Source: Escherichia coli
GTDB lineage: Bacteria > Pseudomonadota > Gammaproteobacteria > Enterobacterales > Enterobacteriaceae
Direction: 5' to 3' (one strand)
Length of the DNA stretch: 64,000 bases
Assembly (NCBI RefSeq): GCF_013315695.1
Contig: NZ_CP054353.1
Below, piece after piece: positions 1,613 through 22,275 of the stretch. The notes beneath the pieces were generated by a model that saw nothing but the letters and a program-made list of their open reading frames with translations, was not told where the DNA came from and made no database searches. The number at the start of each line of letters is the position of its first letter. Positions within the stretch are counted from its first letter, which is position 1. A program made the translations under genes and the position numbers.

Positions 1613-2884
1613 ATGCAGCACAACACACTACCGAAACACGATCAGAAATTGCCGTTTACACGCTACGACTTCGGCTGGGTTTTATTATGCATAGGCATGG
1701 CGATTGGTGCCGGAACCGTGCTGATGCCAGTACAAATTGGCTTGAAGGGAATTTGGGTATTTATTACCGCAGCGATCATTGCTTATCCTGCCACCTGGGT
1801 AGTGCAGGACATTTATTTAAAAACCCTTTCTGAAAGCGATTCCTGTAATGACTACACCGATATTATCAGTCATTACCTGGGGAAGAACTGGGGAATTTTC
1901 CTCGGGGTTATCTACTTTTTGATGATTATCCACGGGATTTTCATCTACTCTCTCTCCGTGGTTTTCGACAGCGCCTCGTACCTGAAAACCTTCGGTTTAA
2001 CCGATGCCGATCTTTCTCAATCTCTATTTTATAAAGTCGCCATTTTCGCCGTACTGGTGGCAATTGCGTCTGGTGGTGAACGATTACTGTTTAAGATTTC
2101 CGGGCCAATGGTGGTGGTCAAAGTAGGGATTATCGTCGTGTTCGGTTTTGCGATGATCCCGCACTGGAATTTCGCCAATATAACCGCCTTCCCGCAAGCC
2201 TCCGTCTTTTTCCGCGATGTCCTGCTTACCATTCCCTTTTGCTTCTTTTCTGCGGTATTTATTCAGGTACTTAACCCAATGAATATTGCCTATCGTAAAC
2301 GGGAAGCGGATAAAGTACTGGCAACCCGGCTCGCGCTGCGTACCCACCGAATTAGTTATGTCACGCTCATCGCGGTGATCCTGTTTTTTGCCTTTTCGTT
2401 TACCTTCTCAATTAGCCACGAAGAAGCCGTTTCTGCCTTTGAACAAAATATCTCGGCACTGGCACTGGCCGCGCAGGTGATCCCTGGGCATATCATTCAT
2501 ATCACCTCTACGGTGCTGAATATCTTTGCCGTACTGACCGCATTCTTTGGCATTTATCTCGGTTTCCACGAGGCCATTAAAGGCATTATTCTCAATCTGT
2601 TAAGCCGAATTATTGATACCAGGAAAATTAATTCACGCGTGCTGACTCTGGCGATTTGCGCTTTTATCGTCATTACGTTGACGATTTGGGTTTCGTTTCG
2701 TGTATCGGTGCTGGTGTTCTTTCAGTTGGGAAGCCCGTTATATGGCATTGTGTCGTGCCTCATTCCGTTTTTCCTGATCTATAAAGTCGCACAACTGGAA
2801 AAACTTCGCGGATTTAAAGCCTGGCTGATTCTGCTTTACGGCATTTTGCTATGCTTGTCGCCACTGTTGAAGCTGATTGAGTAA
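1613..2884 (+). CDS. yhjV: Inner-membrane amino-acid transporter family protein YhjV (423 aa)
   Basis: ORF 1550..2884; the internal Met at 1613 ([15 protein letters not shown]...) gives the 423-aa length I recall for YhjV; many predicted transmembrane segments. Confidence 0.9.
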
Positions 2885-2913
2885 ACCGGAGCGCACGGCC
2901 CCGGTTTTGTGAG

Positions 2914-3918
2914 TTAACGCTGCGGATTTTCATCCTGATCAACAGCAAAACAAGCTACCAGTTGACCGCCGTAGTCTTTTAGCTGCGGCTGCAACTGGGT
3001 GCAGGGGCCGAAGCGCCGACGACAGCGGGCGTTGAAGGCACAGCCTGGCGGTGGATTGAGCGGGCTTGGCAGTTCACCGGTGAGCTTGATGCGCTCGCGG
3101 CGATCGTCCGGGTTCAGGCGCGGCGTCGCGGAGAGTAGCGCCTGAGTGTACGGATGACGCGGGTTATTGAAGATTTGGTCCTTCGTTCCCTTCTCCACGC
3201 AGCGGCCCAGGTACATCACCATCACTTCATCGGCAATGTGCTCCACAACCGACAGGTCGTGGGAGATAAAGACATAAGAAAGCCCCAACTCCTGCTGCAA
3301 ATCCATCATCAGGTTGAGCACCTGCGCACGCACTGAGACGTCCAGCGCAGAAACCGGCTCATCGGCAATCACCACATCCGGGTCGAGCATCAGACCTCGG
3401 GCAATGGCGATACGCTGACGCTGACCGCCGGAGAACATGTGCGGATAGCGGTCGTAATGCTCGGTTTTCAGGCCGACTTTCGCCATCATCGACAGGGCTT
3501 TTTCCCGACGCTGATCTTTGCTTAAGCTGGTATTAATAAGCAGCGGCTCTTCAAGAATTTGCCCAACTTTTTTACGCGGATTTAGCGAACCATAGGGATT
3601 CTGAAAGACGATCTGGATTTTCTGCCGACGCAACTTCTGCGCCTGCGGATCGTGCTTGAGCAGATCCTGCCCCTGGTAATACAGCTCACCACCGGTGGGC
3701 GTTTCGATCATCGTAAGCAACCGACCGAGGGTCGATTTACCGCAGCCGGATTCACCTACTACCGCCAGCGTTTTGCCACGTTCAAGGTTAAACGAAACGC
3801 CATCCAGCGCCTTCACCAGACGTTCCGGCGCGAACATGCCTTTCTTCACCGGATAATGTTTTTTCAGGTCGATAGCCTGCAACAGCGGTTGTTGCGAGGT
3901 GGCCTCATGCGTACTCAT
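2914..3918 (-). CDS. dppF: Dipeptide ABC transporter ATP-binding protein DppF
   Basis: 334 aa with Walker [13 protein letters not shown] signature and C-terminal oligopeptide-transporter domain; last gene of the dppABCDF order. Confidence 0.95.
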
Positions 3919-20768: not shown

Positions 20769-20981
20769 ATGTCCGGTAAAATGACTGGTATCGTAAAATG
20801 GTTCAACGCTGACAAAGGCTTCGGCTTCATCACTCCTGACGATGGCTCTAAAGACGTGTTCGTACACTTCTCTGCTATCCAGAACGATGGTTACAAATCT
20901 CTGGACGAAGGTCAGAAAGTGTCCTTCACCATCGAAAGCGGCGCTAAAGGCCCGGCAGCTGGTAACGTAACCAGCCTGTAA
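20769..20981 (+). CDS. cspA: Major cold-shock protein CspA
   Basis: 70 aa, [21 protein letters not shown]..., with RNP1/RNP2 motifs. Confidence 0.98.
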
Positions 20982-21038: not shown

Positions 21039-21169
21039 TTGTTTATTCAGGAAATAAATAATCGTTCGCGTAATAAAATCTATTATTATTTTTGTGAAGA
21101 ATAAATTTGGGTGCAATGAGAATGCGCAACGCCGTAAGAAAGGCGGGAATAACTTCCCGCCGAAGACGC

Positions 21170-21322
21170 TTACTCTTTCAATTTGCAGGCTAAAAACGCC
21201 GCCAGCTCATAACTCCCCTGTTTAATATGCAATTCACACAGTGAATCTCTTATCATCCAGGTGAAAAATAAAAGCGTGAAACAAATCACTATTAAAGAAA
21301 GTAATCTATATTTCTGCGGCAT
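21170..21322 (-). CDS. hokA: Hok-family type I toxin HokA (50 aa)
   Basis: MPQKYRLLSLIVICFTLLFFTWMIRDSLCELHIKQGSYELAAFLACKLKE, a Hok/Gef family membrane peptide. Confidence 0.85.
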   Translation of the reverse strand: MPQKYRLLSLIVICFTLLFFTWMIRDSLCELHIKQGSYELAAFLACKLKE

Positions 21323-21382
21323 TCCCAGCCTCCTGTGTTGATTTCCAACGAGTAAGAGGCTAACCTTATGGTGTTCAGGCAT
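21170..21382 (-). CDS. mokA: Mok-like in-frame N-terminally extended reading frame overlapping hokA
   Basis: 70-codon ORF in frame with hokA, as in mok/hok pairs; its upstream region is interrupted by IS150 within about 16 bp. Confidence 0.45.
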   Translation of the reverse strand: MPEHHKVSLLLVGNQHRRLGMPQKYRLLSLIVICFTLLFFTWMIRDSLCELHIKQGSYELAAFLACKLKE

Positions 21383-21423
21383 AGGGTAGCCTCACTTTGT
21401 ACTGACCCCAGAAAGTTGGACAG

Positions 21424-22275
21424 TTAAACACGAGGCATATAGGTCTGATTCCGATATTCAATTGGAGTCAGACCTTTTAATTTCAGGCTAATTCTTCTGC
21501 TGTTGTAGTATTCAATATATTCCGTAACAGCATCCTTCAGCTCGCTTATATTACTGAACTCATCAAGATAAAAACACTCCGACTTTAAGGTTCCAAAGAA
21601 ACACTCCACCACAGCATTATCCAGACAATTGCCTTTTCTGGACATGCTTTGTTTAATACCATGTTCTTTAAGGATATTTTGATATCTTCTCATACGATAC
21701 TGCCATCCCTGGTCAGAGTGCAGAACAGGATGCTCGTGAGGATTAAGCTTTTTGAATGCCTGATCGAGCATATTCTCGACCATGTTCATCACTGGTCTTT
21801 CCGAAAGGCTGTAAGAAATAACTTCGTTGTTGAAGAGATCTATTACTGGAGACAAATACAGCTTGCGCCCATTGACTGCAAATTCAGTAACATCGGTAAC
21901 CCACTTCTCGTTTGGCCGCGTAGCCTTGAAATCTCTTTGGAGAACATTGGGGGCGGTTTGCCCTACCTCTCCTCTGTAAGAGCGGTATCGCTTGACCTTA
22001 ATCGCTGCCTTCAGTGAGAGGATTCCCATCAGGCGCTGAACAGCTTTATGGTTAATCTGTTTCCCTTCTCGATGAAGAGACAGCGTTACCCTACGGTATC
22101 CGTATCGGCCTCTATTCTCATGATAAATCTCACCAATACGCTTTTTAACGTCCGCATACTTGTCAGGCTTGCTGAGAGCCTTTAGATGGTAATAAAACGT
22201 ACTGCGCGGTATCTCCGCAGCCCTGAGAAGCTCATCAAGAGGATAAAACTGCCTTAGCTCGTTGAGTACTTTCAC
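21424..22275 (-). CDS. insK: IS150 OrfB (InsK), DDE transposase catalytic domain
   Basis: 283 aa rve-type integrase core; expected to be expressed as an OrfAB fusion by -1 frameshifting. Confidence 0.95.

Follow-up and report, generated by a model that had tools for sequence, protein, structure and literature searches.

The hokA locus between cspA and glyS poses a simple question. An intact toxin gene is found there with a copy of IS150 lying directly upstream of it; can what is left still be considered a toxin-antitoxin module? The locus was examined in a window of 64,000 nucleotides from E. coli (contig NZ_CP054353.1), and all positions given below refer to this whole stretch. A sequence-only reading had described a hokA/mokA locus with IS150 inserted upstream of the mok start and proposed that the insertion probably inactivates or deregulates the module. 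The reading we arrived at, with a probability of roughly 0.85, is that this is the chromosomal hokA/mokA/sokA locus, interrupted by a simple insertion of IS150, and that the module has been dismantled and is most likely silent.

The locus is bounded by cspA (20769-20981, + strand), which carries the full cspA thermoregulator RNA (Rfam, 500.9 bits), and by glyS, which runs from 23092 on the - strand according to the list of open reading frames (ORFs). This cspA gene bears the automatic label 'cspE' in many RefSeq genomes. Over 2.6 kb, the identity to E. coli MS 21-1 is 100% and that to IAI39 and CE10 is 99.5%; all three genomes annotate this stretch as hokA followed by 'IS3-like element IS150 family transposase, programmed frameshift'. 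The hokA coding sequence (21170-21322, - strand) is intact and encodes 50 amino acids, as seen from the ORF list, a Pfam match and the MS 21-1 annotation. It is extended in frame at its N-terminus by a mokA-like ORF of 70 amino acids (21170-21382, - strand), also intact, which reads MPEHHKVSLLLVGNQHRRLG and then the 50 residues of HokA. The 70-residue ORF matched HOK_GEF (PF01848) over the full model, positions 1-42, with an E-value of 2.3e-23, and hokA thus belongs to the Hok/Gef family of membrane toxins. The mok frame has a Shine-Dalgarno (SD) sequence of its own: its ATG is at 21382 and the SD, GAGG, is the complement of 21390-21393, 8 nt upstream. The SD and AUG were set by the Rfam alignment, and the position of the frame agrees with the annotation of K-12 mokA, which shares the 3′ end of hokA. 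By analogy with known systems, hok would be translated through mok.

Three observations concern sequences beside these frames or the same frames in other alleles. A small ORF antisense to the 3′ end of hokA (21122-21193, + strand) is the equivalent of K-12 ysaE (b4793) and is annotated as a hypothetical protein in an identical genome. A sub-threshold Rfam match to STnc370 was found at 23018-23084 on the + strand (46.3 bits, where the gathering score is 54); it is a hairpin between the 3′ end of glyS and the hokA promoter region and probably represents merely the glyS terminator. Finally, mok is out of register with hok in some hokA alleles (L008 and L014) owing to a deletion of 1 nt, GGCAT-CCCAGCC, between the mok and hok ATGs and, therefore, the in-frame Mok-Hok arrangement is not universal.

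The insertion itself is a complete IS150 of exactly 1443 bp (21398-22840, - strand) with its IRR end toward mok and hok, as judged by its ends, ORFs, Pfam domains and the MS 21-1 annotation. It starts with TGTACTG at 21398 (TGTACTGACCCC) and finishes with CAGTACA at 22840 (GGGTGCAGTACA), so that it has the TG...CA termini and the imperfect terminal inverted repeats of this element. Both transposase genes are intact and have the organization of the IS3 family. orfA (22793-22272, - strand; 173 amino acids) encodes a helix-turn-helix domain (HTH_28) and overlaps orfB (22275-21424, - strand; 283 amino acids), which encodes the DDE integrase core (rve), and a motif for -1 frameshifting, A AAA AAG, is found at 22311-22305 on the same strand. 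The copy is 98.9% identical to K-12 IS150, which corresponds to 16 differences, and its genes are co-directional with hokA. There are 15 bases (21383-21397) between the mok ATG and the element, which consequently begins 16 nt upstream of the A of that ATG.

The sequence CACTT is present on both sides of the element, at 21393-21397 and at 22841-22845. For an empty-site comparison, the flanks were joined with one CACTT and the rebuilt site was searched in 5426 complete E. coli genomes. Uninterrupted alleles, such as those of E. coli C and strain 2012C-4221, contain a single CACTT and read ...GTAGCCTCACTTTGATTT... / ...GGGTAGCCTCACTTTGATTTAT..., which demonstrates that the repeat is a true target duplication rather than a chance one and that the insertion was simple. 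An exact 44-mer across the right junction occurs in 233 complete genomes, and this excludes an assembly artefact. The duplication in the window is 5 bp long compared to the 3 bp typical of IS150, and 3-bp duplications were seen in seven other alleles at hok loci; a parse into a 3-bp CTT with an additional CA is also possible. Real as it is, a duplication of 5 bp is atypical. On all of these points the sequence-only reading was accurate: it had called Hok and its in-frame Mok extension intact, had placed the start of IS150 at 21398, about 16 bp upstream of the mok start, which is right to the base, and had taken CACTT on both flanks as the sign of a simple insertion. The comparison with uninterrupted hokA/sokA loci of other strains that it proposed is the one provided by E. 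coli C and 2012C-4221.

What the element has separated was examined with the Rfam model RF01794 ('sok'), which spans 157 nt on the hok-sense strand from the 5′ end of the hok mRNA to the hok AUG. This model is named 'sok antitoxin' and matches the strand of the hok leader, opposite to the annotation of sokA and sokE, and strand calls made with it need care. In uninterrupted alleles it aligns as one piece of 152 nt with 124.9 bits (L003 and L004, both at 771-922). In the window, the alignment falls into two pieces of 80.6 and 41.7 bits that are 1443 bp apart and are cut at about model position 83. The stretch 22919-22841 corresponds to model positions 1-83 and 21397-21320 to positions 80-157; both alignments as reported (22764-22919 and 21320-21475) run on meaninglessly into IS150. 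The parts of the leader and of the Sok gene, encoded in cis and antisense to the mok start, are therefore present, but they are not contiguous and the gene is interrupted. This bears out the earlier claim that IS150 sits inside the DNA for the hok leader and Sok. It also means that the hok promoter and sok are not both contained within 21323-21397, an arrangement that would have spoken against that claim, since the leader and the 3′ part of sokA lie beyond the element.

The detached 5′ leader of the hokA mRNA (22841-22919, - strand; model positions 1 to about 83) contains the tac/ucb region. The mRNA begins with GGGUGCUUGAG..., its tac region, which together with the rest of the first 75-80 nt of the leader lies between IS150 and glyS. 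This segment folds alone with -26.5 kcal/mol (z -3.6), and the hokA promoter is presumed to lie just upstream of it, at about 22920-22960. On the other side of the element, a fbi-like 3′ element of the hokA mRNA was found at 21108-21134 on the - strand. It is complementary to the 5′ end of the mRNA and is predicted to form a duplex with 22898-22919 at a ΔG of -22.8 kcal/mol; 10 of 500 shuffled sequences paired as well. We take this pairing to correspond to the fbi-tac pairing of the R1 hok mRNA. The tac and fbi segments stand on opposite sides of IS150 and, thus, the pairing cannot form in any normal transcript of this allele.

The sokA gene is divided in a similar manner. The presumed sokA promoter (TTGATT, a 17-nt spacer and TAACCT, at 21338-21366) and the first 23-31 nt or so of SokA occupy 21338-21397 on the + strand. 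They were placed by homology with the flanks of a plasmid hok/sok locus (L006) and with sokE, which is annotated in MG1655 antisense to the hokE leader. This 5′ part of SokA is antisense to the mok SD and AUG. A scan for consensus promoters called neither the hok nor the sok promoter, the sok site being below threshold, so that both positions are given by homology only. The 3′ fragment of sokA, with the loop, the 3′ arm of the stem and the U-rich tail, is at 22842-22876 on the + strand and equals the K-12 'sokA pseudogene' at 3722077-3722111. When SokA is reconstructed across the element, it folds into a stem in which GCCUCACUU pairs with AGGUGGGGC, followed by UUUUCUCU, and IS150 lies inside the 5′ arm of this stem.

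These data suggest how the insertion would act. IS150 entered at the base of the SokA stem-loop, 4 nt beyond the complement of the mok SD. This has left the presumed hokA promoter, the 3′ half of sokA and the first 75-80 nt of the hokA mRNA, tac/ucb included, on the glyS side. The cspA side has kept both ORFs, mok and hok, with the SD and AUG of mok, and also the fbi-like element, the presumed sokA promoter and the first 25-30 nt of SokA. A locus split in this way should produce neither a normal hokA mRNA nor a normal SokA RNA, and the module is therefore most likely silent. The regulatory architecture is physically dismantled, as seen in the anatomy of the locus, the target duplication and the split RNA model. 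Functional silencing is what we consider most likely by parallel with the IS-interrupted hok loci of K-12. Inactivation of the latter by IS elements is the accepted view (PMC7232551 and PMC11551753, both citing Pedersen and Gerdes, 1999), and in MG1655 IS150 disrupts sokA (PMC11551753).

The locus resembles hok/sok of plasmid R1 in having a Hok-family toxin, an overlapping mok, an antisense Sok over the mok start and segments that could correspond to tac and fbi in the mRNA. It differs in being chromosomal and split by an IS, and the frame of mok is that of hok in the window but not in the plasmid annotation. Another difference is that R1 hok/sok is a post-segregational killing system, whereas in E. 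coli C the uninterrupted hokA is reported to lack this activity, according to the summary of Pedersen and Gerdes (1999) given in a preprint (bioRxiv 10.1101/2025.08.07.668861). If even the uninterrupted locus does not kill, the insertion may matter little; with a system that may be weak from the start, inactivation by the IS may change little, and its effect on fitness may be small.

The orientation of the element raises the possibility that the module was rewired rather than silenced. The transposase genes are aimed at mok and hok with no terminator detected in between and, therefore, read-through expression of the toxin is possible. In such a scheme, read-through from IS150 would give a mok-hok mRNA without tac/ucb in which the mok start is open. 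The presumed sok promoter, which is intact, would give rise to a chimeric antisense RNA (Sok'-IS150, about 110 nt) that still covers the mok SD and AUG and represses the toxin. Several features fit. Both transposase ORFs share the strand of hokA, and the scan gave no terminator-like site on the - strand from the orfB stop to mok. On the + strand, a hairpin scan and folding identified a strong terminator-like hairpin inside IS150 (21441-21475; a 15-bp stem followed by a T-run, TTTTAATTT) that faces the sok promoter. From its position we infer that it could stop transcripts entering from the sokA promoter, and the chimeric RNA would end there. Also, the mok SD, the mok ATG and hokA were intact in every IS-bearing allele examined. 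The scheme is nevertheless wholly inferential, and IS transposase promoters are generally weak, which counts against it. We consider rewiring unlikely.

The sequence-only reading had compared the insertion with those described for K-12. This comparison holds as an analogy but not if the two are taken to be the same allele. In MG1655, as in the window, the cspA-glyS locus contains IS150, hokA is intact, the leader and sokA are interrupted and a 3′ remnant of sokA is found beyond the element. However, the K-12 element is inverted, with insJ and insK on the + strand and pointing away from hokA. Its IRL end is beside hokA at a left junction where GAGTA is followed directly by TGTACTGCACCC. This junction is 43 bp nearer hokA; the mok start and SD are deleted and mokA is a pseudogene. 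There is no target duplication in K-12, and the right flank reads AACTTTG. In the window, by contrast, IRR is beside an intact mok, with CACTT followed directly by TGTACTGACCCC. Identity by descent of the window allele with the classical K-12 hokA::IS150 could be argued from the location of both elements between hokA and glyS and from right junctions that are only 0-1 nt apart. We regard it as ruled out by the inverted element, the left junction, the missing duplication and the 16 differences within the IS, and give it next to no credence.

An allele of strain UID2309220009 (L017, 270-1712) combines features of both forms. Its left junction is GAGTA joined to IRL with 43 bp missing, as in K-12, yet it carries the IS150 variant of the window with 1 difference and has the right flank CACTTTG. 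The two forms are thus perhaps linked, although the alleles are still distinct. This suggests an IS-mediated adjacent deletion or flip that joins the window and K-12 types. The AACTTTG of K-12, as opposed to the CACTTTG of L017, could be due to a point mutation or a separate event. NCTC 86 (L005, around 795-800) has no IS but a deletion of 49 bp that has taken away the mok start together with the 5′ part of Sok. There are K-12-like SNPs in its flanks, and it resembles the imprecise loss of a K-12-type IS150.

To place the window allele among the others, junctions were counted in the 5426 complete E. coli genomes. About 2816 have an uninterrupted locus. The arrangement of the window, with the same orientation and site, was found in 873-901 genomes and comprises two forms. 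Class A is the window allele, with the 5-bp CACTT and the window's IS variant (233 genomes), and class B has a 3-bp CTT and a canonical IS150 that differs from the window copy at 16 sites (635 genomes). Class D has the same site and CTT with the element in the opposite orientation (96 genomes). The K-12-type left junction, with an inverted element and truncated mok, occurs in about 1654 genomes. This count includes the L017 form with the window IS variant and the flank CACTTTG, which explains some 75 genomes with partial matches, a figure that is approximate and comes from inspection of one locus. Examples of the class B and D alleles, with IS150 at the same nucleotide as in the window, are L008, L010, L011, L012 (IS at about 2000-3443) and L014 (769-2211). 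Altogether, IS150 is found at this one spot, in several configurations, in about 48% of complete E. coli genomes. O145:H28 strains, among them RM13514 (L013, around 2195-2215), have lost IS150 and carry a footprint, ...AGAGGGG-CAGTACA-CACTTTG..., made up of the last 7 nt of IS150 and the 5-bp duplicate; it replaces CCT and destroys the mok SD. The footprint was found as an exact 46-mer in 29 genomes.

A single ancient insertion spread by recombination was rejected as the source of these classes, since gene conversion could alter the sequence of the IS but not the length of the duplication (5 as opposed to 3 bp) or the orientation. The differing duplication lengths and orientations indicate at least three independent insertions at the same hokA nucleotide. 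The window allele, with its 5-bp duplication, IRR toward mok and a 1.1%-divergent IS150, is one of several independent hits at this position.

Repeated use of one nucleotide suggests a strong preference of the element for this site, and other hok loci are consistent with this. A search with the left junction identified IS150 in a plasmid hok/mok locus near psiA (L006, 2047-3489) and in hokC (L007, 2047-3489), and a search with the hokE leader identified it in hokE (L016, 460-1902). In each, the element occupies the homologous position, 4 nt beyond the complement of the mok SD, and the hokE leader is split at one point in about 450 genomes. On the Sok-sense strand, the sequence preceding the IS is GCCTCACTT in hokA (duplication CACTT or CTT), GCCTCGTGG in the plasmid hok (TGG), GCCTCGGGT in hokC (GGT) and GCCCCAGGG in hokE (GGG). 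IRR is toward mok in all four. Read in the hok sense, all junctions consist of the IRR of the element, the duplication, one nucleotide N and then G(A/G)GGC, which is the mok SD at the base of the Sok stem. This motif is also matched by GTA^A-GAGGCTA, the left junction of K-12, on the other arm of the inverted repeat at the mok start site. Such a common motif points to target-site preference rather than selection alone. Similarity of the target to the terminal repeats of IS150 was considered as a cause of targeting, and inspection by eye gave only scattered short matches (CTGAC, GGGG), on which we make no claim.

The insertions in sokE, hokC and the plasmid hok thus share with the window allele the homologous position, IRR toward mok and transposase genes co-directional with hok. 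They differ in affecting paralogous loci, in their 3-bp duplications and in the canonical, K-12-like sequence of their IS150. sokE::IS150 has been reported in XL1-Blue and in more than 400 natural isolates (PMC11551753). Recurrent IS150 insertions at hokC, hokE and mokB have been seen in experimental evolution (PMC5419217), and an IS150 insertion lying between trg and mokB was termed a hot spot in mutation-accumulation lines (PMC5289635). In these E. coli B studies, as here, IS150 repeatedly entered the control regions of hok loci in intergenic DNA; their insertions arose in the laboratory, in REL606 derivatives, and hit hokB, hokC and hokE, whereas the window carries a natural hokA allele known from diverse isolates. 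Our literature search, of limited reach, found no paper on hokB with IS150 and none stating the shared junction motif. IS150 insertions at hokB/sokB have reportedly arisen in the LTEE.

We see an even chance that IS150 is near site-specific for the mok-SD/Sok-stem site of hok loci and that the module is possibly left rewired. As part of this reading, the junctions of hokA alone would amount to at least three to four independent hits: the window allele with its 5-bp duplication and IS variant W, the 3-bp duplication with IS variant K, the inverted element with a 3-bp duplication and the K-12 type. The same survey bears on rewiring in two ways. The orientation common to five classes (hokA classes A and B, hokC, hokE and the plasmid hok) is what rewiring would lead one to expect. 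However, the opposite orientation persists in about 1750 genomes, so that the co-directional one is not required, and an asymmetric target motif can account for the bias.

Another possible explanation is that the insertion has no functional meaning, hokA being already inert, the site merely a preferred target of IS150 and the spread of the alleles neutral. The use of the same nucleotide again and again, whichever way the element faces and across four hok paralogs, agrees with this, as do the roughly half of genomes that keep an uninterrupted locus. The trg/mokB hot spot also arose under minimal selection (PMC5289635), and the absence of killing by the uninterrupted hokA of E. coli C, as summarized in the preprint mentioned above, would fit an inert locus. 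On the other hand, HokA is toxic when overexpressed (bioRxiv 10.1101/2025.08.07.668861) and, therefore, the locus is not intrinsically harmless. IS150 at hok loci also rises in evolving populations, possibly through selection (PMC5419217). We hold neutrality to be a tentative possibility. It is compatible with our main explanation, a dismantled and most likely silent module, as it speaks to the cause of the insertion and not to its structure.

Lesions of this kind, and the locus itself, were already known, and hundreds of public genomes contain the insertion in annotated form. It agrees with the textbook view that insertion sequences often break the hok/sok loci on the E. coli chromosome. Three consequences follow for annotation: this hokA should not be taken as half of a working toxin-antitoxin pair, the two sok fragments should be joined across the element and the allele should not be equated with that of K-12. 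The hot spot of IS150 at hok loci had already been noticed in evolution experiments, and the wider pattern is of modest interest for the target choice of insertion sequences and the decay of type I toxin loci. If near site-specificity is true, hok/sok loci would be preferred landing pads of IS150, and the element would systematically disarm, or be harbored by, type I modules. The common orientation could then leave the module under the control of a chimeric Sok'-IS150 antisense RNA.
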